DNA of 64,000 nt. Origin: Escherichia coli. Lineage in GTDB: Bacteria; Pseudomonadota; Gammaproteobacteria; Enterobacterales; Enterobacteriaceae. Made by a program: the position numbers and the translations under genes. The stretch lies in assembly GCF_022846255.1 (NCBI RefSeq), contig NZ_AP025682.1, one strand, 5' to 3'. The notes below the pieces were generated by a model. That model ran no database searches, was not told where the DNA came from, and saw only the letters and a list, made by a program, of their open reading frames with translations. Numbering within the stretch: position 1 is the stretch's first letter; the number at the start of each line of letters is the position of its first letter. This document shows, in pieces, positions 26,384 to 56,695 of the stretch.

Positions 26384-26476
26384 GGTGAGGTGGCCGAGAG
26401 GCTGAAGGCGCTCCCCTGCTAAGGGAGTATGCGGTCAAAAGCTGCATCCGGGGTTCGAATCCCCGCCTCACCGCCA
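26384..26476 (+). tRNA. serV: tRNA-Ser (anticodon GCU), long variable arm
   Basis: 93 nt cloverleaf ggtgaggtggccgagag...ccgcctcaccgcca with anticodon loop cugCUAag and encoded CCA. Confidence 0.93.
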
Positions 26477-26479
26477 TTT

Positions 26480-26556
26480 GCATCCGTAGCTCAGCTGGAT
26501 AGAGTACTCGGCTACGAACCGAGCGGTCGGAGGTTCGAATCCTCCCGGATGCACCA
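26480..26556 (+). tRNA. argV: tRNA-Arg (anticodon ACG), copy 1
   Basis: 77 nt gcatccgtagctcagctggatagagtactcggctACGaaccgag...ggatgcacca; 3 nt after serV. Gene names for the four copies assigned by order only. Confidence 0.9.
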
Positions 26557-26620
26557 TCTCTTACTTGATACGACTTTAGTGGCGGTATCAAAAAATCTGC
26601 AGTAAAGTAAGTTTCCCGAT

Positions 26621-26697
26621 GCATCCGTAGCTCAGCTGGATAGAGTACTCGGCTACGAACCGAGCGGTCGGAGGTTCGAATCCTCCCGGATGCACCA
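26621..26697 (+). tRNA. argY: tRNA-Arg (anticodon ACG), copy 2
   Basis: Identical 77-nt sequence to copy 1. Confidence 0.9.
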
Positions 26698-26759
26698 TCT
26701 CTTACTTGATATGGCTTTAGTAGCGATATCAATATCAGCAGTAAAATAAATTTCCCGAT

Positions 26760-26836
26760 GCATCCGTAGCTCAGCTGGATAGAGTACTCGGCTACGAACC
26801 GAGCGGTCGGAGGTTCGAATCCTCCCGGATGCACCA
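26760..26836 (+). tRNA. argZ: tRNA-Arg (anticodon ACG), copy 3
   Basis: Identical 77-nt sequence to copy 1. Confidence 0.9.
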
Positions 26837-26899
26837 TCTCTTACTTGATATGGCTTTAGTAGCGATATCAATATCAGCAGTAAAATAAATTTTTCCGAT

Positions 26900-26976
26900 G
26901 CATCCGTAGCTCAGCTGGATAGAGTACTCGGCTACGAACCGAGCGGTCGGAGGTTCGAATCCTCCCGGATGCACCA
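26900..26976 (+). tRNA. argQ: tRNA-Arg (anticodon ACG), copy 4
   Basis: Identical 77-nt sequence to copy 1. Confidence 0.9.
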
Positions 26977-29753: not shown

Positions 29754-29825
29754 AAAAGGCCACTCGTGAGTGGCCAAAATTTCATCTCTGAATTCAGGGA
29801 TGATGATAACAAATGCGCGTCTTTC
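29754..29825 (-). ncRNA. micA: Hfq-dependent small RNA MicA (SraD)
   Basis: Reverse complement reads GAAAGACGCGCATTTGTTATCATCATCCCTGAATTCAGAGATGAAATTTTGGCCACTCACGAGTGGCCTTTTT with an intrinsic terminator; in the gshA-luxS gap. Confidence 0.9.
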
Positions 29826-32027: not shown

Positions 32028-33200
32028 TTAGCCAGCGTTAGCTTTTACGATATCGTCGATCAGTTTATTGACAGGTGCCAGGCTGATTTCACGCGCGGTA
32101 CTTACCGCGACCGGTGTGGAACGTACTTTGTTTGCCAGTACCTGACCGTCACGGTTAGTGGTATTGACACTCACCAGCGTGGATAAACCGATACGCAGCG
32201 GGTATTGCTCCAGCTGTTTCTGGTCCAGTTCAATACGCACAGGCAGACGCTGAACGACTTTGATCCAGTTACCGGTGGCGTTTTGCGCCGGAAGCAGTGA
32301 GAACGCGCTACCTGTGCCCATATCCAGACCAACCACTTTACCGGTGTATTTCACATCATCGCCGTAAATATCGGTGGTGATGGTGACCGGTTGACCGATA
32401 CGCATATTGGCAATCTGCGTCTCTTTAAAGTTGGCATCCACCCACATATTGGTGGCTGGAACGACCGCCATCAGCGGCGTCGTTGGGCTAATTTGCGCCC
32501 CAGGCTGTACCGCGCGGCGGGAGACATAACCGGTCATCGGACTGACAATACGGGTACGCTCCAGCGCCAGCCAGGCGTTACGTACTTCGGTGGCAGCCTG
32601 TTGTACGGCAGGCTGATCTTCCAGTTTCGTCCCCAGAATCATCGCCTGATTGGCATTGTATTGTTGAATAGCGACGTCCAGTTGCGCCTGGGCACTGGTG
32701 ACGGCGTCGCGGGCGTGTTGCAGCTCTTCGCGACCAATCAGGTTGGCATTGCCCAGCGGCACACGGCGGTTGTAGTCGCTTTGTGCTTTCGCGAGGGCGA
32801 TTTTTTGCACCTCAATATTCGCCTGCAACTGTTTGCTGTTAATCATCAGCTGGTGGGTTTGGCGAACGCTGGAAGCCAGTGCAGTTTTTGCTTTTTCAAA
32901 CGCCTGGCGAGCATCTGTCGGGTCGAGAGTGACCAGCACGTCGCCTTCTTTTACAAAATCGGTGTTATCGGCCCAGACTTTCGTCACGCTGCCAGACACC
33001 TGAGACATAATTTGAATCTGATTCCCTGCCACGTATGCGTCATCGGTTTCTTCGAAATGACGCAGTACCAAAAACCAATAAATCCCTATCGCTACGGCAA
33101 TAATTATAAAGAGCAAGGTGAGAAGGAGGAGCAGACGCTTACGTTTGCCGCTCTTCTTTACCGGTTGCTGCGGGGTTTGAGTCTCCGCATTTGCGCTCAT
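32028..33200 (-). CDS. emrA: Multidrug efflux periplasmic adaptor (HlyD family)
   Basis: Start at MSANAETQTP inside the longer ORF (32028..33212); single N-terminal TM then coiled-coil. Confidence 0.94.
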   Translation of the reverse strand: MSANAETQTPQQPVKKSGKRKRLLLLLTLLFIIIAVAIGIYWFLVLRHFEETDDAYVAGNQIQIMSQVSGSVTKVWADNTDFVKEGDVLVTLDPTDARQAFEKAKTALASSVRQTHQLMINSKQLQANIEVQKIALAKAQSDYNRRVPLGNANLIGREELQHARDAVTSAQAQLDVAIQQYNANQAMILGTKLEDQPAVQQAATEVRNAWLALERTRIVSPMTGYVSRRAVQPGAQISPTTPLMAVVPATNMWVDANFKETQIANMRIGQPVTITTDIYGDDVKYTGKVVGLDMGTGSAFSLLPAQNATGNWIKVVQRLPVRIELDQKQLEQYPLRIGLSTLVSVNTTNRDGQVLANKVRSTPVAVSTAREISLAPVNKLIDDIVKANAG

Positions 33201-33326
33201 ATTGTTCTCCACGATCTTCTTAACTCATCGGCTGAGCCGACCTGCTTGCCAAAAAGGCCAGCATGTTACGATGCTGGCCGGTTATTTTTTCTTTTATAAA
33301 TCTGGATTTTTGAGCGAGATGACGCG

Positions 33327-33857
33327 TTAGCTCATCGCTTCGAGAACCACACCGTCCTGTTCCATCTGGTCGAGGCGGGAGAGCAATTTGCGGGTGATTT
33401 GCTCGAGCTGGTCTTTTTCTGTTGTGCTGAGCGCGGACCAGAGTTGATGCAGGCAGTTATGCTGCGGCGGTAAAACCTCGCGCAAAAACTCGTGACCTTT
33501 TTCCGTTAATTGCAGATGCAGGCAGCGGCGATCGTTATCGCTTTCACGACGTTCGATCCAACCGCGTTTTTCCAGTTCATCGGCAATACGCGTCGCGTTG
33601 GTACGGGATGATCCAAGTGCACAACTCAATTCAGAAGGCTGAATACTGTGGTTTTCCTGAGACTCCAGCGTAATCAACGCCATAAACAACGTCTCGTTAA
33701 TCCCCTGAGCCTTCAGCATTTTATTGCGGTTTTCCAGCAGCTTGCTTTGCATATGCATGCAAAGACGGGTCAGAAGGATCTCCTGATAAGGAAAATCTTC
33801 GTGGCGGCTGGCGCGAAATTTTAGCATTTGTTCAATGGGCGTAAACGAACTATCCAT
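33327..33857 (-). CDS. mprA: MarR-family repressor of emrAB
   Basis: 176 aa; winged-helix MarR fold; first gene of the emrRAB operon (also called emrR). Confidence 0.93.
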
Positions 33858-33947: not shown

Positions 33948-34283
33948 TTATATAATCGCCATCACTTTCCAGGCGAGCCCATAGGCCAGCGCACTAAGCA
34001 GTGTTGGGATGATAATGCTGCGTGTTTTATAGAAACTGGCACCCAGTACCGCGAAGCCGACCAGTGTGGGCACGAAACGGCGTGTATCGTGCATCACTTC
34101 TGGTGCGGTAGAGACAACCAGCAGAGCGCATATCGAGGCGATGCCAATGGTGTCGAGCAAAATACCTACCGCGCCACGTTTGGTTGGGCGGGCATTACCC
34201 ACACGCAGGCGCAGCGGCAGATAGCGGAAGCAATAATTCGCCGCGCCAACCAGTAACCCAAGCAGCAGAACCTCATAGCTCAT
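33948..34283 (-). CDS. ygaH: L-valine exporter small subunit (AzlD-like)
   Basis: 111 aa hydrophobic; overlaps the ygaZ stop. Confidence 0.9.
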
Positions 34284-35010
34284 CGGGCGCTCCTTGCCAG
34301 AATGCCTGGATTAACGCAGTGAGGCAGCCACAGACAATGCCTGCCAGAATGGCGACGGGAATAGAAAATAGCGTTACGCCTGCAAGGGCACCAACTAACG
34401 CTGCGGTAACGCAAAGAGATTGTTTGCGCTGGAAAGAGGCGAGCAGGAAACTCATAAAGAGTGCCGGAAGCATAAAACCTAATGCTGCTTCAACGGCGGG
34501 ATAACCTTGCAGCAAGCCGCTGCCGGAGAATGCCCCTATTACCGTACCAAATACCCACGATGACCATGAACTGAAGGCAATGCCGATCATCCAGTTTTCG
34601 CTCCAGCGGCGATTATTGCGTACCAGTTTTGCGGTTGCGGCGGCAAAAACCTCATCCGTCAGGCCAAACGCCCACAGGGCGGTTTTCGATTTTTGCAGAC
34701 GCTGAATAATACGGCTACGCAGTGACGGGCCATACAAAACATGGCGAACATCCATTGCCATGACGGTCAGTGCAGCAACCCACAAACTACTCCCGGCTGC
34801 CAGCATCGCGGTAATGACGAACTGGCTCGCGCCTGCATAAATGATGCAGGAGAAAAAAACGCTTTCGAGAGGAGAGAATCCCAGACGGGTCGCATTCAGA
34901 CCGAACGCAAAGGCCACCGGAATATAACTAATAACAATCGGTAAACTGTCTTTGCATCCTTCCATGAAGGTCGCCGAACCAGGAGCAGGCTGTGGAGTAG
35001 GGCTTTCCAT
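34273..35010 (-). CDS. ygaZ: L-valine exporter large subunit (AzlC-like)
   Basis: 245 aa polytopic membrane protein upstream of ygaH. Confidence 0.9.
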
Positions 35011-35133
35011 AGAGTGTACGCTTAACGATTGTTAATATTATAAATAGACTGAATGAATATCTTAACCTTATCAGACTGATGGGCTTCTTAACACCCTTAT
35101 AAGTGTAAAGCCACGAAAACGGTTGCTGATTGC

Positions 35134-36318
35134 TTAATTTGCGGCTTCCTGACGATGAAAACCTCGCCACCAGACCAGTAAGTTAACCAGGGCAATCGTC
35201 GCGCCAGCCAGACACACGCCAGCCCAACCGCCATGTTGCCAGGCTGAGGCTGAAATTAGCGAACCAGCGGCACCGCCAATAAAGTAGCTGGTCATGTAAC
35301 CTGCGGTCAGGCGATTACGCGCATCAGGGTGTATTCGATAAATTACCGTCTGGTTAGTGATATGCACGCCCTGCACGGTGAGGTCCAGCACCAGGATGCC
35401 GATAATCAGCGCCAGTACGGAAGTGTGACCAAACCAGATTGCCAGCCATGAAAGTAACAGCAGCAGCAGACCGAAAGTTGTGGTGTGGTGCGATTTGCCC
35501 TTATCGGCAAAACCGCCCGCCGGACGAGCGCCCAACGCTCCGGCAGCTCCCGCAAGCCCAAACAGACCAATTACACCATCGCTGTAGTTAAAAGGTGGAG
35601 CGGCAAGCAAAAAGGCCATTGAGGTCCAGAGAATGCTGAAGTTGGCAAAGGTCAGGCAGCCCAGCAACGCGCGGGTGCGCAGGATTTTATCGCTGATAAA
35701 CATGCTGAAAACAGAACCTAGCAACTGTGGGTAGTTGAGGTGGGTTTCTGATTTCATTTGTGGCAGACCACGCCATAACGCCAGCGCCATCAGTGCCATT
35801 AATACCGAAGCGACCCAAAAGACAGTTCGCCAGCCACCGAGACTCGCCAGCAATCCGGCAACGGTCCGTGCCAGCAAGATCCCCAACAGCAGCCCGCTCA
35901 TAATGGTGCCGACCACTTTGCCGCGTTTGTCCGGTGAAGCCAGCGTCGCTGCCAGCGGAACCAGAATTTGTGCCACGACTGAGAATAAACCGGTTAATGC
36001 CGTACCGAGGAGCATCATCGCCAGCGACTGACTGCTGGCAGTGATTAACATGCCGCCTGCTGCCAGTAAGGTCATCGAGACAATCAGGCGGCGGCGTTCA
36101 AACATATCACCGAGGGGAACAAGAAACAGCAGACCTGCGGCATAGCCCAACTGCGCGGCGGTAACAATAAAGCCTGCCGAACTGGCGGAAAGGGAAAAGT
36201 TACGCGCGATGGTGTCGAGCAATGGCTGGGCGTAATAGTTACTGGCTACCGCCAGACCGGTGGCGATAGACATCAGCACGATCAGCGCCGGGCTAATCTC
36301 ATGATTAGGTTTAGTCAT
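35134..36318 (-). CDS. ygaY: MFS transporter, apparently intact
   Basis: Uninterrupted 394-aa ORF with about 12 predicted hydrophobic segments. Confidence 0.85.
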   Translation of the reverse strand: MTKPNHEISPALIVLMSIATGLAVASNYYAQPLLDTIARNFSLSASSAGFIVTAAQLGYAAGLLFLVPLGDMFERRRLIVSMTLLAAGGMLITASSQSLAMMLLGTALTGLFSVVAQILVPLAATLASPDKRGKVVGTIMSGLLLGILLARTVAGLLASLGGWRTVFWVASVLMALMALALWRGLPQMKSETHLNYPQLLGSVFSMFISDKILRTRALLGCLTFANFSILWTSMAFLLAAPPFNYSDGVIGLFGLAGAAGALGARPAGGFADKGKSHHTTTFGLLLLLLSWLAIWFGHTSVLALIIGILVLDLTVQGVHITNQTVIYRIHPDARNRLTAGYMTSYFIGGAAGSLISASAWQHGGWAGVCLAGATIALVNLLVWWRGFHRQEAAN

Positions 36319-36419
36319 TATTTTTGTTCATCAGGTGATGATTAAGCTGGAAATCAATAATAGCGGATGTTGATGAATATGGGATGAAAGATAGATTGTT
36401 GAAATGTGCGGTGTGGTTT

Positions 36420-36500
36420 GTAGGTATGATAAGACGCGCCAGCGTCGCATCAGGCATTGTGTACAGAGCGGCGGATGAGGCAAAAACGCCTTATCCGCCC
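36420..36500. repeat. REP/BIME palindromic units in the ygaY-proX gap
   Basis: gataagacgcgccagcgtcgcatcaggc and ggcggatgaggcaaaaacgccttatccgcc palindromes. Confidence 0.7.
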
Positions 36501-36509
36501 GAATAAAAA

Positions 36510-37502
36510 TTACTTCTGCGCTGCCAGCGCCTCATTCACCCAGCCATCGAACTGCTGCTGGTGGGCTTTGATCCAGCCATCAACGTGGCCCTGAATATCG
36601 CCTTCTGAGGCTTTGCCGTCATGCATAATGGCGTTCTGGGCGTTAATATCTGCCACTGGTAACTGCATAATGGCAAACAGTTTCGCTGCTGCCGGGTTTT
36701 TCTCGGCCCAGGCTTTGTTGGCAACGATATGCATGGTACTGACCGGGAAGCCGTAATTCGCGCCATTCGGCAGTTTGGTATCGGCATTTTTATCGCCCGG
36801 CAGTGCGGAGAACGGCACCTGCAACCAGACCACATCTTTCCCCGGTTTCAGTTCGTTACTCACCCAGTACGGCGTCCAGGTGTAGTAAAACACCGGCTTA
36901 CCCTCTTTGTAACGACTGATGGTGTCAGCCATCATCGCTGCGTAGTTCCCCTGATTATGCGTCACGGTATTGGTCAGTCCATACGCGGCAAGCTGGTGGT
37001 TGATCGCACCTTCGCAGCCCCAGCCTGGGTTACAGCCGGTTAAATCCGCTTTACCGTCGCCGTTGGTATCGAACAGTTTGGCGATCTTCGGATCTTTAAG
37101 TTGCGCGATGTTGGTAATTTTATACTGGTCGGCGGTTTTCTTATCGATCAGGTAACCCTGTGCCGCGCCGTTAACAAATACTCCTTCACGATAAAATTTC
37201 TTATCGCCACCGGCAGCTTCGTACATGTTGTCATGCAGTGGCGTCCAGTTCACTGCGGTGAAGGTTGCATCGCCGGAAGCAAGTGAGGTGTAGCCAACGT
37301 TGTAATCCACTTCGCTGGGTTTATTGACGGTATAACCTAATTTCTCCAGCGCACGACTGACCAGCAGTGTCTGGAAGGTTTCTTCGGTGATGGTGCTTTG
37401 AACTGGATTAACAGTAATGCCTTTGCCCGGCAGGTCGGCAGCAAAAGTTTGTGTAGAGATAAGCGTGGCAAACGCTGTCGCAAAAAGTACGCTATGTCGC
37501 AT
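36510..37502 (-). CDS. proX: Glycine betaine/proline ABC transporter periplasmic binding protein
   Basis: Start at [16 protein letters not shown] (signal peptide) inside the longer ORF (36510..37550). Confidence 0.94.
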
Positions 37503-37558: not shown

Positions 37559-38623
37559 TTACTTAATGAATGGGCGGGTCAGCAGACCGACAGGGCCAGT
37601 GGTGTACCAGCGACGATTGCCGCGACTGCGTGAGTCGCGCCCAACGGCCTGCGTCAGGCGGTCGAGGATAATGGCGAGGATCACAATCCCGACGCCGCCA
37701 ACGGTGGCAAGCCCCATATCCAGACGACCGATACCGCGAAGTACCATCTGACCCAGCCCGCCGACGGCAATCATCGAGGCGATGACCACCATAGAAAGGG
37801 CCAGCATCAGCGTCTGGTTAACGCCCGCCATAATGGTTGGCATCGCCAGCGGTAACTGAACTTTGAACAGCATCTGGCGCGGGCTGGCACCGAATGAGCG
37901 CGAGGCTTCAATCAGATCCGCCGGAACCTGGTTAATTCCCAGAATCGTCAGACGGATAATCGGCGGCAGCGCAAAGATGATCGTCACCACCACGCCCGGC
38001 ACGTTGCCGATACCAAACAGCATGACGATTGGCACCAGATAAACAAACGCGGGCGTGGTCTGCATGGCATCAAGCAGTGGACGAATAATTTTCGCCGCTC
38101 GCGGACTTCTCGCCAGCCAGATCCCCAACGGCAAACCTATGACGATACAGAACAGCAGGGCTGTTAACACCAGCGCCAGGGTAACCATTGCCTGTGACCA
38201 GGCACCGATTGCGCCGATGGCAATCAGCGAAACCAGCGTCGCCACGCCCATTCCGACCCCGGAAATCTGCCAGGCGATGAGAGCGAAAACGATAATCGCC
38301 ACCGGCGCGGGCATACCCAGCAGCAATTGCTGGAAACCGTTGAGGATGTAATCAACCGGAACGCGCACGCCCTGAAAGACGGGACGAAAATGGGTAACGA
38401 CCCAGTCGATCCCTTCTGTGACCCAACTGTCGAGCGGGATCAGCGTTTTATGGAACGGATCGAGAATATTAAAATGCTCGACGTTTGGCGCAGGCGTACT
38501 GGTCAGCCAGTCAGCACCACCGCCGTCAGTCGGTGCAGCAGCCGGTGTACCCCAGGCGTCTGCGGACTGTGCGGCACTGTCCGCCGCTGGCGTGGTATCC
38601 CACGGATTATTTTGATCAGCCAT
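37559..38623 (-). CDS. proW: Glycine betaine/proline ABC transporter permease
   Basis: 354 aa; hydrophilic N-terminus followed by TM segments. Confidence 0.94.
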
Positions 38624-39818
38624 TATTTACCCCCTCACGATCTAAAGCGCGCAGCAGCATTCCTTTCGAAATGATGCCGACATACTGTTGGTCCTCGTCG
38701 ACCACGGGCACCGCACAGGGGGCCTGTCCGACATGAGAGAGCAACTCGCTAAGAGGCGTTTGTGCATCGACCGCTAACGGCGCATCAATCAGCGCCGCAT
38801 CAAGACCTTGCTGCTGCGTTAACGCGGTTTTAAGCGAATCGATAGACACTGCGCCGACAAACTTATTACCGCGTTCGATGACGTAGCCATATTCGCGATC
38901 TTCATCCTGCAATAATTTCAATGCCGAACGCGGGCCGAAGCCGGGGGTTTTACGGATTAAGCCGTTCGGTGTCCGGCGAGCAATATCTTTCGCACTGAAT
39001 ACCTGACTAATATCGACGCCACGGAAGAAGGTACGGACATAATCATTCGCCGGATTATTGAGAATTTCATCCGGTGTGCCGACCTGTACCACTTCACCAT
39101 TTTGCATAATGGCAATTCGGTCGCCAATACGCATAGCTTCATCGAGATCGTGGGAAATAAAGACAATTGTGCGCTGATGTTTCGCCTGTAATTTTACCAG
39201 CTCATCCTGCATCTCGGTGCGAATTAATGGATCGAGTGCTGAGAAGGCTTCGTCCATTAATAATATATCCGGATTAATCGCTAACGCGCGGGCTAATCCC
39301 ACACGTTGACGCATCCCGCCAGAGAGTTCATCCGGGTAGCTGTGGGCATAATTTTCCAGCCCGACCTGACGCAGTGCATCAAGGGCTTTTTCCCGGCGTT
39401 CTTCGGCATTAATTCCGGCCAATTCCATACCGAATGCAGTATTGTCCAGCACGGTCATATGCGGCATTAAGGCAAAGGACTGGAAGACCATCGCAATCTT
39501 TTTTCTGCGCACCTCACGGAGTTCGGCGTCGGATATTTTGGCAATATCCACACCATCAATCAGCACTTGCCCGCGGGTGGGTTCAATCAGGCGATTGAGA
39601 AGGCGTACCATTGTGGATTTACCCGAACCGGATAATCCCATGATGACAAATATCTCGCCTTCTTCAATGGCCAGACTGGCGTCTTTTACGCCAAGCGATA
39701 GCCCAGTTTTTTCCAGAATTTGTTCTTTTGAAAGTCCTTGTTCGATATATTTGAAAGCTCGCTGTGGATGCTCACCAAATATTTTATAAAGATTTTTAAT
39801 TTCTAATTTAATTGCCAT
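38616..39818 (-). CDS. proV: Glycine betaine/proline ABC transporter ATPase with tandem CBS domains
   Basis: 400 aa; Walker [13 protein letters not shown] signature LSGGMRQR, Walker B LLMDEA. Confidence 0.95.
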
Positions 39819-43986: not shown

Positions 43987-44041
43987 ATACTAGATGTAGT
44001 TGAAAAAAGATTCAACCACACAATATATAGCAAATAGTGGT
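43987..44041 (-). promoter_or_regulatory. nrdHIEF promoter region with NrdR-box-like palindromic half-sites
   Basis: acacaatatatagcaa (44026-44041) and atactagatgtagttg (43987-44002) resemble the ACACwATATATwGTGT NrdR consensus; 70-130 bp upstream of nrdH. Confidence 0.5.
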
Positions 44042-44096
44042 CGAAATTACCCTGGGTATGAGCGTGACGGGGTAGGGGGATTTTTGTGATTCACCA

Positions 44097-44128
44097 GGCA
44101 AAAAGAAACCCCGAAGCCAGGCTTCGGG
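44097..44128 (-). terminator. Rho-independent terminator of ygaM
   Basis: Stem ccccgaagc/gcttcgggg with an A-run on the plus strand, giving a T-run on the minus strand. Confidence 0.75.
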
Positions 44129-44160
44129 GTCAAAGACGCGTATTTATTATCATTATTGCA

Positions 44161-44490
44161 CTACGATTTGCGCATGCTTAACAGTGCGCCGATAAAAATA
44201 CCAACCGCAGCTGCTGTACCCACGCTACACCAGGGTCTTTCACGAACAAAAGAATCCGCGCAGCCAACGGCATCACGCGCGGCTTGCTGGACGCGAGTAC
44301 GACCATGCATTCGCGCCCTGGTTTCTTTCAGTAGAGCCTGCGCTTTACTACGAGCGGCTTCGGCTTCCCCTTTGGCGTCGCTGCCCCAGGACTTCAATAC
44401 AGATTCGAGACTGTCAGCTAATTGATTGACATCATTCTGGATATCCTGCACGCCATCATCAACGTCGTTGCGGTTCGGTCGGTTAAACAT
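44161..44490 (-). CDS. ygaM: ElaB/YqjD-family ribosome-associated membrane-anchored protein
   Basis: Start at MFNRPNRNDVDD inside the longer ORF (44161..44502); C-terminal TM anchor. Confidence 0.88.
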   Translation of the reverse strand: MFNRPNRNDVDDGVQDIQNDVNQLADSLESVLKSWGSDAKGEAEAARSKAQALLKETRARMHGRTRVQQAARDAVGCADSFVRERPWCSVGTAAAVGIFIGALLSMRKS

Positions 44491-44641
44491 ATGATCCCCC
44501 ATTAGAATTCGATGTAATTTTCAGTGTAGACCATAATTTTCTTAACTGAGGTTCATCGCGGCTTTATGGACTTTTCTGAAAGCGTTGTGAATGCGCAATC
44601 AGGTAAGGTAGGCCCGCGGTTGATAATAACGAGGATCAAAT

Positions 44642-44986
44642 ATGTATTTACGACCAGACGAGGTGGCGCGCGTACTTGAAAAAGTCGGTTTTACTGTCGA
44701 TGTGGTAACCCAGAAAGCGTATGGTTACCGCCGTGGGGAAAATTATGTCTATGTTAATCGCGAAGCGCGAATGGGACGTACCGCCCTGGTGATTCATCCA
44801 ACATTAAAAGAACGTAGTTCAACACTGGCTGAACCCGCTTCCGATATTAAAACTTGCGATCATTACCAGCAATTTCCGCTCTATTTAGCGGGTGAACGTC
44901 ATGAGCATTACGGTATCCCGCATGGCTTTAGTTCGCGTGTTGCGCTTGAACGTTATTTGAATGGTTTATTTGGCGAAGCCAGTTAA
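44642..44986 (+). CDS. ygaC: Conserved protein of unknown function (DUF2002)
   Basis: 114-aa ORF recognised as the conserved enterobacterial YgaC. Confidence 0.85.
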
Positions 44987-45022
44987 AGACGCGACTGGCG
45001 ATGCCAGTCGCGAAAAGAAGGG

Positions 45023-45472
45023 TCAGGCTTTTACCTGCTGGTAACGGCTGACTTTAAACAGTCGGCGGCAATAATCGAGGAAGTAGCCATAAACCGCCCC
45101 CATCAACATCGAAACAACGATGTTTGAACTGACCGCCGCCATAATCTGATGCCAGTCTGCGCCCACCACTAACAAGATCGCCACATACACCGGTGACTGG
45201 AACGTCACATAAGCCAGGATATCCGCCAGATTTTTTATCCAGCCCGACGGGCTAACTTTGCGTGCCGCGCGCATAAACAGATCGCGGTACATACCGTATG
45301 GCCATGCAATTAAGATGTTCACCGGAATCGCTACCAATCTGGAATAAAAAGACTGTTCGAAGCTCATTCCGGAGAGGAAAACTTCAATACACATGTTCAC
45401 GACAGAACAGTAAACAACCATCGCGAACGTATCTGCAACTGCATGACGCAAGCGTGACTGCGGTGAGAACAT
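45023..45472 (-). CDS. alaE: L-alanine exporter
   Basis: 149 aa small membrane protein (formerly ygaW). Confidence 0.9.
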
Positions 45473-46139
45473 GCTAATGCTCCTTAATAAAAGCGTAATG
45501 GGATGTTAATGGAGATGAAAGCAGTGGATCTCATTGCCATCTGCATTTTCGCATAGCGTATATCGCTGGCTATGACTAATCAATTAGTGAAAAATTTTTA
45601 TTTAATCTGTTTTTGTAGATAAAATATTCCGTAACGGCGCGTTTTTTGTACATTGTGGATTTTTACATGCCGGTATGATTTATTTTTAATTAAATCAATT
45701 GGATATGTGTTTACCTTTATTTTCACTCATGAAGGTTTGGGGGGGAGGTAACGCTATAAGCGTAGAGAATTCGGTGTATGTAGTGATCGGGTCATTTTCA
45801 GCATTTTTTATGCCAGATAATGTACATTGACAGCAGAAAGCACCAGTGAGTGATGTTTTCTTTTATTCTGTTGAGTTGCATTTTTATTCACTTTGGTTTT
45901 GTCAGGCTTGCGGAATTAGCGAGCAGAGAGCGCCGCTCTGTTCACCAATAACCTAAATTACTCATCAAAATGGCTAATATATAATCTTGAAATTATTCTG
46001 AGAGTTTCAGAAAATAACAGCTGAAATAATCTCGTGCAGGACTGTAAATAGATTAAATTTTGTGGAAATATAATAAGTGATCGCTTACACTACGCGACGA
46101 AATACTTTTTTGTTTTGGCGTTAAAAGGTTTTCTTTATT

Positions 46140-46544
46140 ATGTCCGTAATGTTACAAAGTTTAAATAACATTCGCACCCTCCGTGCGATGGCTCGCGAAT
46201 TCTCCATTGACGTTCTTGAAGAAATGCTCGAAAAATTCAGGGTTGTCACTAAAGAAAGACGTGAAGAAGAAGAACAACAGCAGCGTGAACTGGCAGAGCG
46301 CCAGGAAAAAATTAGCACCTGGCTGGAGCTGATGAAAGCTGACGGAATTAACCCGGAAGAGTTATTGGGTGATAGCTCTGCTGCGGCACCACGCGCTGGT
46401 AAAAAACGCCAGCCGCGTCCGGCGAAATATAAATTCATCGATGTTAACGGTGAAACTAAAACCTGGACCGGTCAGGGCCGTACACCGAAGCCAATCGCTC
46501 AGGCGCTGGCAGAAGGTAAATCTCTCGACGATTTCCTGATCTAA
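46140..46544 (+). CDS. stpA: H-NS paralogue nucleoid protein / RNA chaperone
   Basis: 134 aa [32 protein letters not shown] with C-terminal DNA-binding region; preceded by a 667-bp AT-rich leader. Confidence 0.95.
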
Positions 46545-46590
46545 TTACTGAGGCCGGATGCCGCTGCTATGGCGCGTCCGGCGTCGCTTC

Positions 46591-47115
46591 TCAAGCTCGT
46601 TGGTTCCACGGCATCTTATCTAACAATCTTGCCATTCCACAAAAACCACTAATTCCTGCAAACAGTAACCCAGCACCAACAAAGCCGCTTAATAAGAAGA
46701 AAACGCTATTTACGGTATAACCCAGTACAACGCCGATTAATATTAAACCACCCGCGGCGATCTGCACCTGGCGCATTAACGGCAAGGGTTGGGATTTATT
46801 TACCGCTACTGGCAATCCTGCTTTTTTCCAGCCATCAATCCCATCTTCGAGTAAAAAGATTTCTGCGGGGGCGGCAATCGCTGCTAATTTATCGGCGTTA
46901 TTACTGGTGCGTTTACCTGCCTGGCAGTGGAATATAATTTGCTCGCGACGTAATTTAGGCGGAAGACCTGACTGTTCCAGTACGGATAATGGAGCCAGAT
47001 CTGCTTCAGGAATATGTTCACGAAGATATTCATCAGCATCACGAATATCGATTAACTTTGCGCCGCGTGCGATTAATTCTTGTGCATCATGCGGCGAAAT
47101 GGTTGTCAAAGCCAT
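46591..47115 (-). CDS. ygaP: Membrane-anchored rhodanese (thiosulfate sulfurtransferase)
   Basis: 174 aa; rhodanese active-site Cys loop (FHCQAGKRT) and C-terminal TM segments. Confidence 0.9.
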
Positions 47116-47124
47116 AGTGACTCC

Positions 47125-47424
47125 TTACGGACAATAGACATTTTTCAGGGTGGCGATAATGGCATTTACCGCCTCATTTTTAATGGAATATAGAATGCGT
47201 TGGGCATCCCGTTGGCTGTCGATAAGCCCTTCGCCCCGCATACGAGCGAGATGCTGTGATGTCGCAGAGGCACTCAGTCCGGTAATGCGCGTCAGCTCTC
47301 CCGCGCTGGTGCCGGGGGAACCGCTAAGCATACACAGAATCAGCAATCGTTTAGGGTGGCTCATTGATTTCAATAAGGCCGCTGCCTGTTCGGCACTGGC
47401 CTGTAATTGTGCGAGTTCAGTCAT
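47125..47424 (-). CDS. ygaV: ArsR/SmtB-family transcriptional repressor
   Basis: 99 aa winged HTH; immediately upstream of ygaP on the same strand (operon). Confidence 0.9.
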   Translation of the reverse strand: MTELAQLQASAEQAAALLKSMSHPKRLLILCMLSGSPGTSAGELTRITGLSASATSQHLARMRGEGLIDSQRDAQRILYSIKNEAVNAIIATLKNVYCP

Positions 47425-47606
47425 AGTTATTTAAGTAATTTCTAAATTAAGTAAACTCTAAACTAAGAGTGCAACATATACCAGCATCAGCAGCGTAAAT
47501 GAGAGTAAAAGCGTAAGCTGAAACTGGCAGGCTCCGATAAAATTACTACGCTTAAGAGATAAAATCTCTTTTTAAACAATGAGTAATTTTCTTATAGGGA
47601 GTACAT

Positions 47607-47765
47607 ATGGGTTTCTGGAGAATCGTCATCACCATCATTCTGCCGCCGCTCGGCGTGCTGCTCGGTAAAGGGTTCGGTTGGGCGTTCATTATTAATATTC
47701 TGCTGACACTGCTTGGCTATATCCCCGGTTTGATTCACGCGTTCTGGGTGCAAACCCGCGATTAA
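47607..47765 (+). CDS. yqaE: Pmp3/UPF0057-family small membrane proteolipid (52 aa)
   Basis: ATG at 47607 preceded by RBS gggag; translates MGFWRIVITIILPPLGVLLGKGFGWAFIINILLTLLGYIPGLIHAFWVQTRD; absent from the supplied ORF track, presumably for being under 60 aa. Confidence 0.88.
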   Translation: MGFWRIVITIILPPLGVLLGKGFGWAFIINILLTLLGYIPGLIHAFWVQTRD

Positions 47766-47848
47766 ACCTGTGCTCACCCCCGCGGCGTTAACGCGCCGCG
47801 TTCCTCTGCTACACTTTCTGAGTGTTTCCGTTAACGAATGAGGTAGCT

Positions 47849-48298
47849 ATGGGTCTGTTCAATTTTGTGAAAGATGCCGGAGAAAAACTCTGGGACGCGG
47901 TTACAGGTCAGCACGATAAAGACGATCAGGCGAAGAAGGTGCAGGAGCATCTGAACAAAACCGGTATACCTGATGCCGATAAAGTGAACATTCAAATTGC
48001 CGACGGCAAAGCGACGGTCACTGGTGACGGCTTAAGTCAGGAGGCGAAGGAGAAAATCCTTGTTGCGGTGGGGAATATTTCCGGTATTGCCAGTGTCGAT
48101 GATCAGGTGAAAACGGCGACACCAGCCACTGCCAGCCAGTTTTATGCCGTTAAGTCTGGCGACACTCTGAGTGCCATTTCCAAACAGGTCTACGGTAACG
48201 CTAATCTGTACAATAAAATCTTCGAAGCGAATAAACCGATGCTAAAAAGCCCGGATAAAATTTACCCGGGGCAAGTGTTGCGTATTCCTGAAGAGTAG
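47849..48298 (+). CDS. kbp: Potassium-binding protein with BON and LysM domains
   Basis: Start at [15 protein letters not shown] inside the longer ORF (47822..48298); C-terminal LysM (also called ygaU). Confidence 0.92.
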
Positions 48299-48961
48299 TT
48301 AATTGCCAGCCATCGCCTGCTGGATAATGGGAATCGGCGTCAGCAAATGCTGGCGCATTAACTCACTGGCGCGCGCGGCATCCCGCGCCAGCACAGCTTC
48401 GGTTAAAATTTGATGTTGGTTGTGTTTATCTTCCAGCATTTCCACGGAAAGTACCGTTCGCCGCAGCCAGATGAAGCGATAGCGCGCCGCCAGATCAAAC
48501 AACCGTTCACGCATTTGCAGCAAATAGTGAGAACCACAGCCTGTCACAATTGCAGTATGAAACGCCTGATGACGCAGATCCCACTCATCAAGCATTTTCT
48601 CACTGGCGTCACAGGCCTCAAGCTTACTGAGCAGATGCGCCTTCGCAAGAACGTCTGCCTCCCACTCATCACTACCGCGGGCAATCGCCAGGCTTACCAG
48701 CATCGCTTCCATATTGGCACGGGCATCGAAAATATCGAGCAGCTCCTGCTCTGACATAGACGCCACCCGATACCCTTTTTGATTCACCACCGTGACCAGT
48801 CGTTCTGCCACCAGTTGCGAAAGCGCTTCCCGCAACGGCCCAACGCCAAGTGCATAACGCGATGTCAGCAAACTCATCCGTAATTTTTCATCCGGCTGAA
48901 AATTGCCGCGAATAATATCGTTCTTCAGCCAGCGATAGCCATCCAGAGAGGTAATGGTCAT
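48299..48961 (-). CDS. csiR: GntR/FadR-family repressor of the csiD-lhgO-gabDTP operon
   Basis: Start at MTITSLDGYRWL inside the longer ORF (48299..48979). Confidence 0.9.
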   Translation of the reverse strand: MTITSLDGYRWLKNDIIRGNFQPDEKLRMSLLTSRYALGVGPLREALSQLVAERLVTVVNQKGYRVASMSEQELLDIFDARANMEAMLVSLAIARGSDEWEADVLAKAHLLSKLEACDASEKMLDEWDLRHQAFHTAIVTGCGSHYLLQMRERLFDLAARYRFIWLRRTVLSVEMLEDKHNQHQILTEAVLARDAARASELMRQHLLTPIPIIQQAMAGN

Positions 48962-48981
48962 GGTGTGACTCCTGATCATTA

Positions 48982-50382
48982 TCAGCGCGTATTATGAATG
49001 GGTGTTTTTTGCCACATTATCAGCTTTTTCCAGCGAGCCATAATTGGCACGGTACAGATAATCCCAATCGCTAATAAGCCGGTGGAGAGCACTTCTAACT
49101 GTTGCGCCGGGCGGAATAGCATCACTACCAACACAAAGGTAATAAAACCGATTACCAGCCAGGTGAGCCACGGATAAAGCCACATCCGCAGGCGAATTTC
49201 GCTTCCTTCTGCTCGCAGAATTTTGCGCATCCGCAATTGTGAAACGGCGATGACTAAATAAACCAGCAGGGCGATAGCGCCGGAGCTGTCGATCAGAAAT
49301 TTAAACACCTTCGCAGGCGCGTAATAGTTCACCACCACCGTTAAGAATGCCGCGCCGGTGGAGAGTAACACCGCCACGTACGGGGTTTTACTGCGGTTGA
49401 TTTTACCCATTACCGCGGGAGCATCACCGCGACGGCTTAAGGAGTAGAGCATCCTGGAAGCGGTATACAGCGCCGAGTTCAGGCAACTGGTTACGGAAAG
49501 TAATATCACGCAGTCCATGATTAATTTCGCATGAGGAATATTGAGCAATTCCAGAACCGAGCGATAAGAACCAACGGCTTTCAGCCCCGGCATATTCCAC
49601 GGGATTAATGCCACAACGACAAAAATAGAACACAAATAGAAAATAGAGATACGCCAGATAACCGAGTTGGTGGCGCGGACAATATGTTTTTCCGGCGTGT
49701 CGGATTCCGCGGCGGCAATGGTGACAATTTCTGCGCCCATAAACGAGAACATGGTGATCAACATCGCGCTTAATACCGCACCGAAGCCGTTGGGCATAAA
49801 GCCGCCGCTATCCCACAATCTTGAAATACCGCTCACGTCGGCATACGGGTAAAAACCGCTAATTGCGACTGCACCAAGGAAAATAAAGGCCAGGATAGCG
49901 ATGACTTTACACAGCGCCAGCCAGAACTCAAATTCGCCGTAGTTTTTAACGCTTAATAAATTACTGCCGGTTAAGGCGAGGGTAATGACGAGGGAAAATA
50001 ACCAGATGGGAATGCCTGGAACCCACGAGTGCAGGATCATGGCGGCGATGTTGGCTTCAAGTGGGATAACCAGTACCCAAAACCACCAGTACAACCAGCC
50101 GATGGTATAGCCCGCCCAGCGGCCAATGGCTTTATCGGCATAGGTGGAAAACGAACCGGTATCAGGCGTGGCAACTGCCATTTCCGCCAACATCCGCATA
50201 ATCATAACCACCAGTAATCCGGCGAACAGATAGGCCAGTAATACCGCCGGGCCCGCTTCGGCGATGGCGACGCTGGAACCGACAAACAGACTTGCGCCGA
50301 TAACACCGGCAATAGACAACATGGTGACGTGGCGTGACTTCAGCCCGCCGCCTAACTCATGTGGTTGCGATGATTGCCCCAT
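48982..50382 (-). CDS. gabP: Gamma-aminobutyrate permease (APC family)
   Basis: Start at MGQSSQPHELGGGLKSRHV, 21 codons inside the longest ORF (48982..50445). Confidence 0.93.
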   Translation of the reverse strand: MGQSSQPHELGGGLKSRHVTMLSIAGVIGASLFVGSSVAIAEAGPAVLLAYLFAGLLVVMIMRMLAEMAVATPDTGSFSTYADKAIGRWAGYTIGWLYWWFWVLVIPLEANIAAMILHSWVPGIPIWLFSLVITLALTGSNLLSVKNYGEFEFWLALCKVIAILAFIFLGAVAISGFYPYADVSGISRLWDSGGFMPNGFGAVLSAMLITMFSFMGAEIVTIAAAESDTPEKHIVRATNSVIWRISIFYLCSIFVVVALIPWNMPGLKAVGSYRSVLELLNIPHAKLIMDCVILLSVTSCLNSALYTASRMLYSLSRRGDAPAVMGKINRSKTPYVAVLLSTGAAFLTVVVNYYAPAKVFKFLIDSSGAIALLVYLVIAVSQLRMRKILRAEGSEIRLRMWLYPWLTWLVIGFITFVLVVMLFRPAQQLEVLSTGLLAIGIICTVPIMARWKKLIMWQKTPIHNTR

Positions 50383-50479
50383 CCTGAATCCTCTCGAAAG
50401 TGTGTCACTTGGGAGAGCGCCCCGACATTTCCCGCGTCGGGTCACGCGTGTAATTGTTATTGATTCTTTTTACCGGAGA

Positions 50480-50612
50480 GCGGCTCCGCCTTATCCGGCC
50501 GACATAGATTTATTCCTGTTCACATACAGATTGTCGGATGCAGCGTAAACGCTTTATCCGACCTGGATTCGCGTAGGCCGGACAAGACGCGCAGCGTCGC
50601 CTCCGGCATGGG
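50480..50612. repeat. Cluster of REP/BIME palindromic units in the gabT-gabP gap
   Basis: cgccttatccggccgacat, gtcggatgcagcgtaaacgctttatccgacctg and gtaggccggacaagacgcgcagcgtcgcctccggcatg. Confidence 0.75.
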
Positions 50613-50619
50613 TACGGAT

Positions 50620-51900
50620 CTACTGCTTCGCCTCAGCAAAACACTGGCTGATGATCTCCAGACCCTGACGGATCTGAGCGTCTTCAATGGTGAGCGGTAC
50701 AAGGATGCGCAGCACGTTGTTATACGGGCCGCAGGAGAGAAGAATCAGGCCTTTATCGCGGGCACGCGCCACGATCTCGGCGGTGAGTTTGGCGTCCGGT
50801 TTGCTGTGATCGCCATCTTCAAACAGCTCGATGGCAATCATCGCTCCCAGCCCGCGTATATCGCCGATCTCCGGGTGTTTTTCGGCTATCGCCAGCAATC
50901 CGTCTTTCAGCTTATGCCCCAGGTCGTTGGCTTTTTGCAGCAGATTTTCCTGCTCGAATACCTTTAACACTTCCAGCGCTGCCACGCAGGCAATCGGGTT
51001 ACCGGCATAGGTGCCGCCCAGACCGCCTGGAGCGACGGCATCCATCACTTCCGCGCGCCCGGTGACGCCCGCCAGCGGGAAGCCGCCCGCGATCGATTTC
51101 GCAAAGGTGGTAAGATCCGGCGCAACGCCCATTTGCTCCATCGCAAACAGCGTGCCGGTACGCCCTGCGCCGCTCTGCACTTCATCGGCAATCAGCATGA
51201 TCCCGTGCTCGTCACACAGCGCGCGTAAACGCTGCATAAAGGCTGGCGTCGCGGCGTAGAAACCGCCTTCGCCCTGAACCGGCTCAATCACGATGGCGGC
51301 GATATCTTCCGGCGCAGCATCATTTTTAAAAATTCGGTGAATGCTGGCGATAGCGTCATCTTCACTGATGCCGTGCAGCGGGCAAGGATAAAGCGCGCGA
51401 TAAACGTGCCCAGGCATCAGCCCCATGCCCGCAGAGTACGGATTCACCTTGCCGGTCAGCGCCAGCGTGTAATGCGTGCGCCCGTGGTACGCGCCGCTAA
51501 AGGCGATGGTCCCGCTGCGTTTGGTGGCGGCGCGGGCGATTTTCACTGCGTTTTCCACCGCTTCAGAACCCGTGGTGACCAGCAGCGTTTTCTTGGCAAA
51601 ATCGCCCGGCACCTTCTGATTCATAATCTCGCACAGCTCCAGATACGGCTCGTAAGCCAGCACCTGGAAGCAGGTGTGCGACAGTTTTTTCAACTGCGCT
51701 TCCACTGCCGCCACCACTTTCGGATGCAGGTGCCCGGTATTGAGCACCGCAATCCCGCCCGCGAAATCAAGATACTCACGGCCTTCAACGTCCCACACCC
51801 GGCAGTTTTCCGCGCGGTCAGCGAAAATCGGGTGAATTTGCCCAACGCCACGGGGAATCGCCTGACTGCGGCGCTGCATTAACTCTTTATTGCTGCTCAT
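50620..51900 (-). CDS. gabT: 4-aminobutyrate aminotransferase (PLP-dependent)
   Basis: Class-III aminotransferase; start taken at the second Met (MSSNKELMQ); the longest ORF starts at 51906. Confidence 0.94.
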   Translation of the reverse strand: MSSNKELMQRRSQAIPRGVGQIHPIFADRAENCRVWDVEGREYLDFAGGIAVLNTGHLHPKVVAAVEAQLKKLSHTCFQVLAYEPYLELCEIMNQKVPGDFAKKTLLVTTGSEAVENAVKIARAATKRSGTIAFSGAYHGRTHYTLALTGKVNPYSAGMGLMPGHVYRALYPCPLHGISEDDAIASIHRIFKNDAAPEDIAAIVIEPVQGEGGFYAATPAFMQRLRALCDEHGIMLIADEVQSGAGRTGTLFAMEQMGVAPDLTTFAKSIAGGFPLAGVTGRAEVMDAVAPGGLGGTYAGNPIACVAALEVLKVFEQENLLQKANDLGHKLKDGLLAIAEKHPEIGDIRGLGAMIAIELFEDGDHSKPDAKLTAEIVARARDKGLILLSCGPYNNVLRILVPLTIEDAQIRQGLEIISQCFAEAKQ

Positions 51901-51913
51901 TCGCATTCTCCAG

Positions 51914-53362
51914 TTAAAGACCGATGCACATATATTTGATTTCTAAGTAATCTTCGATGCCATACTTCGAACCTTCACGACCCAGACCCGAGGCTTTAAT
52001 GCCGCCAAACGGGGCCACTTCATTGGAAATAATGCCGGTGTTGATGCCGATGATGCCGTACTCCAGTGCTTCGCCCACGCGGAAGACGCGGCTTAAATCA
52101 CGGGCGTAGAAATAGGCTGCAAGGCCAAATTCGGTGTCATTGGCTTGCGCAATCACATCGGCTTCATCTTTAAAACGGAACAGCGGGGCGAGGGGGCCAA
52201 ACGTCTCTTCTTTCGACACTTTGGCGTTAGCCGGAACGTCCACCAGAATGGTCGGCTGGAAGAAGTTACCGCCGCGTTCATGTGCTTTACCGCCGCAAAC
52301 CACGCGCGCGCCTTTCTCCAGCGCATCGGCAATATGCTCTTCCACTTTTGCTACCGCTTTTTCATCGATCAGCGGCCCGATGGTGACGCCTTTCTCCAGC
52401 CCGTTGCCGATGTGCAGTTTGCTCACCGCCTGCTGCAATTTTTCGGCAAAGCGGTCATACACGCCGTTCTGCACATACAGGCGGTTGGCGCAGACGCAGG
52501 TTTGCCCGGCGTTACGGAATTTCGAGGCCAGCGCGCCTTCCACGGCTTTATCGAGATCGGCATCGTCAAAGACAATAAACGGTGCGTTGCCGCCCAGCTC
52601 CAGCGACACTTTTTTGATGTCTTTCGCGCACTGTTCCATTAACTGACGGCCAATTTCGGTCGAGCCGGTAAACGACAGCTTGCGCACCAGCGGGTTGCTG
52701 GTCAGTTCGTTACCGACCGCGCCCGCCGAACCGGTGACTACGTTAAACACGCCAGCCGGAACGCCCGCGCGAATCGCCAGTTCTGCCAGCGCCAGCGCAG
52801 AGAACGGCGTCTGACTGGCGGGCTTCAGCACCATCGTGCAGCCTGCCGCCAGCGCCGGACCGGCTTTACGGGTAATCATCGCCGCCGGGAAGTTCCACGG
52901 CGTGATAGCCGCGGTGACGCCAATCGGCTGCTTGATAACAATCAGGCGTTTATCGGCCTGATGACCGGGAATGGTGTCGCCATAAATACGTTTGCCTTCT
53001 TCAGCAAACCACTCAATAAAGGAAGCGGCGTAGCTGATTTCGCCTTTCGCTTCAGTCAATGGTTTGCCCTGTTCGAGGGTCATCAGGCGCGCTAAATCGT
53101 CCTGATGCTCCATCATTAAATTGAACCAGTTGCGCAGAATGTTGGCGCGTTCTTTGGCAGTGAGCGCACGCCAGGCGGGCAGGGCGCGGTTGGCGGCGTC
53201 GATAGCGGCGCGGGTTTCATCAGCGCCCATTTTCGGCACGCTACCCAGCTTGTCGCCGTTCGCCGGATTGGTGACGTCGATGACCTCGCCATTGTTGGCG
53301 TCCAGCCATTCCCCGTTAATCAACGCCTGCTGGCGGAATAAGTTACTGTCGTTAAGTTTCAT
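51914..53362 (-). CDS. gabD: Succinate-semialdehyde dehydrogenase (NADP+)
   Basis: 482 aa aldehyde dehydrogenase with catalytic Cys/Glu motifs (ELGGNAP; FRNAGQTCVCANR). Confidence 0.95.
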   Translation of the reverse strand: MKLNDSNLFRQQALINGEWLDANNGEVIDVTNPANGDKLGSVPKMGADETRAAIDAANRALPAWRALTAKERANILRNWFNLMMEHQDDLARLMTLEQGKPLTEAKGEISYAASFIEWFAEEGKRIYGDTIPGHQADKRLIVIKQPIGVTAAITPWNFPAAMITRKAGPALAAGCTMVLKPASQTPFSALALAELAIRAGVPAGVFNVVTGSAGAVGNELTSNPLVRKLSFTGSTEIGRQLMEQCAKDIKKVSLELGGNAPFIVFDDADLDKAVEGALASKFRNAGQTCVCANRLYVQNGVYDRFAEKLQQAVSKLHIGNGLEKGVTIGPLIDEKAVAKVEEHIADALEKGARVVCGGKAHERGGNFFQPTILVDVPANAKVSKEETFGPLAPLFRFKDEADVIAQANDTEFGLAAYFYARDLSRVFRVGEALEYGIIGINTGIISNEVAPFGGIKASGLGREGSKYGIEDYLEIKYMCIGL

Positions 53363-53384
53363 CGCTACATCCTGTTTTCAAAGG

Positions 53385-54653: not shown

Positions 54654-54672
54654 CCGCTCAATTCCTTTGCGC

Positions 54673-55749
<1,077 letters not shown>

Positions 55750-56179
55750 TTACATATTGTTTTCTTATTGTGATCAAAAACAACAAATTAATAACAAATA
55801 ATGTGAGGGATAAGAATTGGGTTGAAAGGAAATGAATAATTAAAACAATATATTAAGTGTGCTTATACTCTTTTTCGAACTGGTGGCATTTGTTTAAATG
55901 CTATTTAAACTGCTTTTCCAGAGTTCAACTTACTGAGTTCCGTGTCGACTAATGTGAGTAAGATCAATCGCATCCAACCTATGTTACTTGATGGAATCGA
56001 TAACAATATTAATGAATATACAGATTCCGGGAAGGCTGGCTATGGGGGCAAATTATTCTCTTTCTGGCAACAGGTAAATAACAGTGACCATTTGTCGAGA
56101 AGCTGATACTAAGCTGAGGGATACTGTATATGTCTGGACTGTAATTGGATGAATTCTATTCAGGGCGGGTCAGGACCAA

Positions 56180-56205
56180 TAAAAAAGCCCGCATCAGCGG
56201 GCTTT
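56180..56205 (-). terminator. Rho-independent terminator downstream of ssrA
   Basis: Plus strand aaaaaagcccgcatcagcgggcttt, i.e. hairpin plus T-run on the minus strand; about 128 nt beyond the mature tmRNA 3' end. Confidence 0.7.
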
Positions 56206-56332
56206 AATGTCATAGGGAGTCGCGACTCCGTTGCGTATCCTTTTTTGTCTCCTCACCGTCTGGTCGGTGTCCTGCTGAGACTTATAACTTCCTGTTTTTG
56301 TTGGTGTAGTCCTTACACCGTCCAATCATGAT

Positions 56333-56695
56333 TGGTGGAGCTGGCGGGAGTTGAACCCGCGTCCGAAATTCCTACATCCTCGGTACTACATGCTTAGTCA
56401 GTCTTTACATTCGCTTGCCAGCTGCGGACGGACACGCCACTAACAAACTAGCCTGATTAAGTTTTAACGCTTCAACCCCAGGCAGGGCTTCCACGCGATC
56501 TCTTTTGGGTTTGACCTCTCTTGATCCCCGTCCTAAGAGCGGAGGCTAGGGAGAGAGGGCTCTAAGCAGGTTATTAAGCTGCTAAAGCGTAGTTTTCGTC
56601 GTTTGCGACTATTTTTTGCGGCTTTTTACGAGGCCAACCGCCCCTCGGCATGCACCTTGGGTTTCGCAAATCCCGTCGAATCCAGAATCAGCCCC
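56333..56695 (-). ncRNA. ssrA: tmRNA (transfer-messenger RNA, SsrA)
   Basis: Reverse complement begins GGGGCTGATTCTGGATTCGACGGGATTTGCGAAACCCAAGGTGCATGCCGAGGGGCGG and ends ...GGTTCAACTCCCGCCAGCTCCACCA; 363 nt; tag-coding region present. Confidence 0.97.

Follow-up and report, generated by a model that had tools for sequence, protein, structure and literature searches.

Nearly all knowledge of the ygaY region of Escherichia coli rests on the physiology of K-12. In strain MG1655 the gene (b2681) is an annotated pseudogene of 1178 bp, at 2808316-2809493 of NC_000913.3, and in PGAP annotation a copy of the K-12 type is described as 'MFS transporter, frameshifted'. The literature calls K-12 ygaY cryptic, and the locus is routinely used for neutral integration and as a 'pseudogene control'. 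It is reported to contact the downstream regulatory element of proU through an H-NS bridge, and its transcription to be weak but to increase upon osmotic shock, the more so when StpA is lacking (Rashid et al.). According to Hassan et al. (2017, PMC5417439), TCDB files YgaY (P76628) as 2.A.1.36.3, within the YnfM ('acriflavin-sensitivity') family. YnfM itself is a glutarate exporter in E. coli BL21, where efflux is CCCP-sensitive, and a glutarate/dicarboxylate exporter in Corynebacterium (PMC12622518). For the intact YgaY protein, no characterisation and no expression or transport evidence from any strain was found in the searchable literature, where biological mentions concern the K-12 pseudogene or integration locus.

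The DNA analysed here is a stretch of 64,000 nucleotides from E. coli, referred to as the window, in which ygaY is an ordinary wild-type gene, part of the chromosomal core of Escherichia and Citrobacter, and situated between proU and ygaZH. Both intact ygaY, annotated as 'MFS transporter' in thousands of RefSeq genomes, and the K-12 pseudogene are already on record, and the observation of an intact copy is correct but unremarkable. The present study adds the exact K-12 lesion together with the microhomology that flanks it, the frequency of the deletion in the population, an estimate of selection, and a confident structural model with family placement.

The ygaY locus and its neighbours

The gene lies on the minus strand at 35134..36318, where the six-frame ORF listing holds exactly one ORF, of 394 codons, that starts with ATG and ends with TAA; its product is an MFS transporter with 12 TM helices and belongs to the YnfM family. 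The first-pass annotation had claimed an intact, 394-aa ygaY at these coordinates, and this holds, with the strand now added; the stop or frameshift that it might have overlooked was searched for in the ORF listing and in the raw sequence across 35134-36318, and neither of these, nor any ambiguous base, is present. A chance ORF is excluded by the Pfam match of the product, by the occurrence of ygaY in 5,418 of 5,426 complete E. coli genomes (megablast), by 394-aa orthologues in other genera, and by the purifying selection described below.

The proU and ygaZH genes adjoin ygaY on its two sides, as had been claimed, and all are on the minus strand. Upstream are the genes of the proU glycine betaine ABC transporter, proX (36510-37502), proW (37559-38623) and proV (38616-39818), and downstream are those for the two subunits of the L-valine exporter, ygaZ (34273-35010, a 245-aa ORF) and ygaH (33948-34283, a 111-aa ORF), with emrR/mprA (33327-33857) and emrA (32028-33212) beyond them in the same orientation. 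The order is that of K-12, proVWX-ygaY-ygaZH-mprA-emrAB, read in reverse, and the order and lengths of ygaZ and ygaH match K-12 b2682/b2683 and strain SCU-204. The proXWV-ygaY synteny is common to the window, K-12, E2348/69 and SCU-204, and the longer arrangement nrdEF-proVWX-ygaY-ygaZH-emrR-emrAB is also found in E. fergusonii and Citrobacter.

A simple scan detected no terminator-like site around ygaY, including the interval between ygaY and ygaZ. The 123-bp spacer that separates these two genes does contain a promoter-like site (35037..35065, minus strand; TTAAGA-17-TATAAT, 10/12), which is a consensus match only, from a scan whose matches do not exceed in number the shuffled expectation; it suggests that ygaZH may have its own promoter, independent of ygaY. 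These features bear on whether YgaY is functionally coupled to its neighbours (ygaZH, emrRAB or proU) in a cluster for efflux or osmoadaptation, where it might, for example, export a branched-chain amino-acid-related or osmolyte-related compound. The genes are all co-oriented, with no terminator-like site between ygaY and ygaZ, and the order proVWX-ygaY-ygaZH-emrR-emrAB has been kept from E. coli to Citrobacter, but synteny inside a single enterobacterial clade may be simple inheritance, and the promoter-like site ahead of ygaZ speaks against coupling, as do the distant family members (47-57% identity) that sit in unrelated neighbourhoods. The functions of ygaZH, emrRAB and proU were, moreover, worked out in K-12 without YgaY, and coupling of this kind is quite improbable. 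Reading a substrate from gene neighbourhood was also attempted and given up, the genes next to the 47-57% relatives being unrelated, with no regulator or enzyme that recurs among their contigs.

On its other side, ygaY is separated from proX by a 191-bp spacer (36319-36509) which carries, just downstream of proX, a REP-type repeat (36423..36500, minus strand; Rfam naRNA4/CssrE, RF02564, 61.6 bits against a gathering score of 59.5). By alignment, this REP-bearing spacer type is common to the window, K-12 and E. fergusonii, whereas in E2348/69 it is replaced by an unrelated proX-ygaY spacer of 448 bp. The window thus has an E2348/69-like ygaY allele beside a spacer of the K-12/E. fergusonii type, which suggests that the sequence is locally mosaic, or that a boundary of recombination runs between ygaY and proX.

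Several observations were made on the window at large. Among complete RefSeq E. coli genomes, the closest to positions 24001-46000 reach 99.1% at best and come from B2-type human and dog isolates, the best for 44001-64000 lie at 98.5-98.9%, and a ygaY allele of at least 99% identity occurs in only 4 complete genomes; it seems that the lineage of the window is under-represented among complete genomes, or that the region is recombinant. In the best-matching strains (e.g., SCU-204), 22,000 bases of the window correspond to 24,128 bp, a difference of ~2.1 kb, and the extra length includes an IS200C transposase gene, located between luxS and emrB (L014, 6681-7139), that is apparently missing from the luxS-emrB interval of the window at ~29.8-30.5 kb. 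The MicA sRNA (29754-29825, minus strand; 83.9 bits), which adjoins luxS, and the five tRNA genes downstream of csrA (26384-26973, plus strand), one for Ser and four for Arg by comparison with SCU-204, are ordinary for the region. The 20-kb segment gabDTP ... ssrA-smpB ... recN (44001-64000) is collinear in only 1,491 of the 5,426 complete genomes. Within it, the tmRNA gene ssrA (56333-56695, minus strand) has no prophage or island adjoining it; in K-12 the ssrA site is occupied by the CP4-57 prophage, and by this comparison the attachment site in the window is unoccupied.

The K-12 lesion and the frequency of damaged alleles

The first-pass annotation had described ygaY as a disrupted pseudogene in K-12, in agreement with the annotation of NC_000913.3, and the pairwise alignment it proposed has now located the lesion, a 7-bp deletion at ORF nt 255-261; the K-12 gene is not intact over this span. 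Compared with K-12 2808316-2809493, the window ORF shows 38 substitutions and one gap, at 96.2% nucleotide identity. The seven bases concerned, GGCAGCA, are present in the window at 36058..36064 (minus strand), within codons 85-87, and are deleted in K-12. The local sequence is CT-GGCAGCA-GGC-GGC, so that a GGC direct repeat borders the deleted block, and because of this microhomology the deletion can be placed anywhere in 36055-36064; it probably arose by replication slippage between the GGC repeats. After the deletion, the K-12 frame continues as ...LLAAC to a stop at codon 89, the remainder being open in another frame. In the AlphaFold model the lesion falls within predicted TM3 (helix 75-94), and since the frame is shifted there, the K-12 product would have two and a half helices.

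The K-12-type junction, CCTTACT joined directly to GGCGGCATG, is absent from the window, which has the undeleted CTGGCAGCAGGCGGC instead and so carries the intact allele rather than the K-12-type pseudogene allele. The two copies share the same locus and neighbours and, outside the lesion, differ by only 3 amino-acid substitutions, whereas the K-12 copy lacks GGCAGCA and loses its frame in TM3 while that of the window is full length. That few non-synonymous changes have so far accumulated in the K-12 copy fits a recent, lineage-specific inactivation. Taken jointly, the identity of the gene, the wild-type status of the window allele and the nature of the K-12 lesion are close to certain.

The frequency of the deletion was estimated with a probe of 80 bases centred on the K-12 junction, a match of at least 99% identity being read as carriage of the deletion. 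Such matches occur in 354 of the 5,405 complete E. coli genomes, and the remaining 5,051 align to the probe at 80-95% only, which means that they have a 7-bp gap relative to it and are without the K-12 deletion (~93% of the genomes). The 40 carriers listed of the 354, MG1655, C600, J53, DH5alpha, NEB 5-alpha and HST04 among them, all seem to be laboratory derivatives of K-12 or to be of K-12 size, and judged on these 40, the 354 as a whole look like K-12 laboratory derivatives. Intact ygaY is the rule and K-12 is the exception. The first-pass annotation had proposed that this strain retains a functional transporter, and while the intact allele is real, it is no peculiarity of the strain but the near-universal wild type.

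Full-length orthologues of 394 aa extend beyond E. coli: those of Shigella are 98-99% identical, those of E. fergusonii and E. marmotae 97%, that of E. albertii 95% and those of Citrobacter 92-93%. Together with WP_000165669.1, the 'MFS transporter' of EPEC strain E2348/69, these Escherichia, Shigella and Citrobacter proteins share length and synteny with the window copy, at 92-99.8% identity. Damaged alleles other than that of K-12 do occur. In strain DX6 the loss of a single base pair at nt 347 leads to a stop at codon 140, AST81 has a 5-bp CACCA tandem duplication after nt 828 with a stop at codon 306, and the seawater isolate PCP06021 has lost the 3' part of ygaY, all of ygaZ and the 5' end of ygaH, so that the first 158 bp of ygaY are joined to ygaH. 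Not all of these need be real mutations, as errors of assembly could account for some. Sporadic, independent lesions of this kind in natural isolates indicate that ygaY is dispensable, yet it is usually kept.

Selection and expression of the intact allele

Estimates of dN/dS by the Nei-Gojobori method, comparing window ygaY with one other copy at a time, were 0.028 against K-12 (35 synonymous and 3 non-synonymous differences), 0.050 against E. fergusonii and 0.044 against Citrobacter (dS 1.08). Values of ~0.03-0.05 indicate strong purifying selection on ygaY.

Set against 101 representative orthologues of 394 aa, the window protein departs from the majority residue at just three positions, I8 (majority L), L103 (majority I) and S159 (majority N); all three changes are conservative and fall in columns that vary freely in an alignment of 80 family members. 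The closest genome copy, from E2348/69 (99.8% DNA identity), differs by A124V and G364S, and at both of these positions the window has the majority residue. The residues that are near-invariant in the 80-sequence alignment are all present, namely Q31-P32-L33, Q56, Y59, P68-L-G-D71, G137, G142, G146, R151, G155, W163, R336 and G348. A hidden defect in the window allele was considered and ruled out, there being no deviations besides the three given above. That the ORF merely looks intact, whether through a sequencing or assembly artefact or because of some concealed inactivating change, is hardly conceivable, given that its length and frame agree with those of thousands of independent genomes, that its differences from the majority sequence are so few and so placed, and that it keeps the near-invariant residues of the family. 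Low dN/dS and the lack of unusual substitutions thus lend indirect support to a functional window YgaY.

Whether the protein is made in appreciable amounts is a separate matter. The presumed promoter and 5'UTR of ygaY is a tract of ~95 bp (36319..36413, minus strand) conserved among Escherichia, the window, K-12, E2348/69 and E. fergusonii being identical in alignment from CGCACATTTCAAC to the ATG. A simple promoter scan found no consensus sigma-70 promoter upstream of ygaY, and no Shine-Dalgarno sequence is evident in the raw sequence before the ATG. As the K-12 locus is reportedly associated with H-NS, ygaY may be poorly expressed under laboratory conditions. It could then be supposed that the intact ORF is effectively silent, or cryptic, being repressed by H-NS/StpA and poorly translated, and that it contributes little. 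The lack of a recognisable promoter and Shine-Dalgarno sequence would agree with this, as would the tolerance of independent frameshifts and a deletion in natural isolates. Such silence is nevertheless unlikely, because a dN/dS of 0.03-0.05 across Escherichia and Citrobacter (dS up to 1.08) requires that the protein be made and selected in nature, and conservation of the 95 bp upstream of the gene argues in the same direction.

Family placement and proposed transport function

The first-pass annotation had called the hydropathy of the protein MFS-like, and this is well borne out. YgaY matches Pfam PF07690 (MFS_1) with 142.3 bits against a cut-off of 33.4 (E 2.4e-41), which places it within the MFS, and an AlphaFold model built on 80 diverse family members (pLDDT 95.5, pTM 0.93) has 12 TM helices in the canonical 6+6 MFS fold; the peaks of hydropathy agree with the TM prediction. 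In the model, the N-half helices span residues 10-40, 45-65, 75-94, 99-126, 132-161 and 163-184, a short linker helix (196-209) joins the two six-helix bundles, and the C-half helices span 211-239, 247-272, 276-298, 301-329 and 331-393, where DSSP has merged two helices into the last of these segments.

In MFS proteins, motif A (G-x-L-x-D-R-x-G-R-[RK]) lies in the TM2-TM3 loop, and YgaY has it in the variant form V67-P-L-G-D71-M-F-E-R75-R-R-L-I. Among the 80 aligned family sequences D71 hardly varies, and their consensus has ERRR. The antiporter motif C of DHA transporters, G-x3-G-P-x2-G-G in TM5, is absent from YgaY, whose TM5 reads G137-TIMS-G142-LLL-G146-ILLA-R151-TVA-G155 (GTIMSGLLLGILLARTVAG), glycine-rich but without Gly-Pro; the consensus of the family here is VVGxVMSGLLxGILLARTxSG. 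As motif C is missing, the direction of transport cannot be read from the sequence.

A HMMER search of 1.84 billion cluster representatives returned 1,143 clusters at E <= 1e-30, most of them full-length (~400 aa) and 35-57% identical, and on this similarity YgaY is a member of a large and widespread MFS subfamily. A 596-aa protein from an ENA metagenome scored 1092 bits at 73% identity, which exceeds what a single copy can give; a misassembly, tandem or fused, could explain this, as could a partial duplication. Neither YgaY nor the 80 family members scored above the cut-off of any curated NCBIfam family, although there were sub-threshold matches to many MFS families, including TIGR00710 (Bcr/CflA; 49.7 against a cut-off of 200.9), NF002921 (sugar efflux; 63.2 against 401), and the Cmx/CmrA (52.5 against 400) and EmrD (36.5 against 479) models. 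Neither the curated HMM scores nor motif C, therefore, place YgaY in DHA1 (TCDB 2.A.1.2), Bcr-CflA or SET (SotB).

The best structural and profile matches are nonetheless to DHA1-type exporters. Foldseek against the PDB ranked SotB first (6KKK, TM-score 0.84), with MdfA (6EUQ/4ZP0, 0.83-0.84) and NorA (8TTE, 0.80) after it, followed by VMAT, YajR, FLVCR and SPNS2, and a profile search of PDB sequences gave SotB (8e-16), EmrD (2e-14) and YajR (2e-11). A single-sequence search of the PDB produced weak matches only (SotB, 22 bits), while the profile and fold searches put SotB, EmrD, MdfA and NorA foremost. SotB (6KKI/6KKK), MdfA (4ZP0), NorA (8TTE) and EmrD (2GFP) resemble YgaY in being compact 12-TM proteins of ~390 residues (TM-scores 0.79-0.85), but their sequence identity to it is 15-18%, and YgaY does not have the Gly-Pro of motif C. 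The sequence match to YnfM is far stronger than that to SotB. By BLASTP, residues 1-390 of YgaY align with 20-414 of K-12 YnfM (b1596) at 26% identity (80 bits, E 7e-21, compared with 22 bits for SotB), in accord with placement in the YnfM family. The two proteins align end to end, both have the MFS architecture of 12 TM helices, and an Arg in TM5 is conserved between them (R151 in YgaY), yet YnfM is only a distant paralogue. YgaY-type proteins have their own QPLL signature in TM1 and the variant motif A VPLGDxxERRRLI, as against GPLSDAIGRKPVM.

By analogy with YnfM, a proton-dependent exporter of glutarate and dicarboxylates, and with the closest structural relatives, SotB, MdfA and NorA, it is proposed that YgaY would act as a secondary, proton-coupled exporter driven by the proton-motive force. 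It would work by alternating access of the rocker-switch kind, as MFS proteins typically do, and would carry a small organic metabolite, perhaps an organic acid. This analogy tips the balance a little towards export rather than import. An importer, that is, a proton symporter for a nutrient or osmoprotectant, is a possible but less favoured reading. MFS folds are compatible with both directions, the antiporter motif C is missing, and ygaY adjoins the proU uptake system; in addition, the best partial NCBIfam match is to the aromatic acid/H+ symporter subfamily TIGR00895 (78.7 bits against 418.6, N-terminal half only), and the glucose symporter GlcP is also matched by the N-terminal half of YgaY. 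However, these symporter matches cover the generic N-terminal half of MFS proteins and, as in the case of TIGR00895, fall far under the family cut-offs, whereas the full-length matches in sequence or structure (YnfM, SotB, EmrD, YajR, MdfA and NorA) are all to exporters. As to the substrate, 26% identity makes transfer from YnfM unsafe, and any particular class that might be named would be an improbable guess. Taken as a whole, the locus is very probably best explained as a wild-type ygaY allele that encodes a putative proton-coupled exporter of the YnfM family.

A bolder proposal may be put forward, although it is highly improbable, that YgaY is a dedicated exporter acting together with the valine exporter YgaZH, with EmrRAB and with the proU importer, and that it might release an organic acid or an amino-acid-derived metabolite in osmotic or metabolic overflow stress. 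If this were true, the physiology of K-12 would be that of a cell without a component present in nearly every natural E. coli. Independently of that proposal, YgaY is a well-conserved and selectively maintained orphan transporter that is invisible to K-12 genetics, and finding out what it transports will call for a strain other than K-12 or for repair of the allele.
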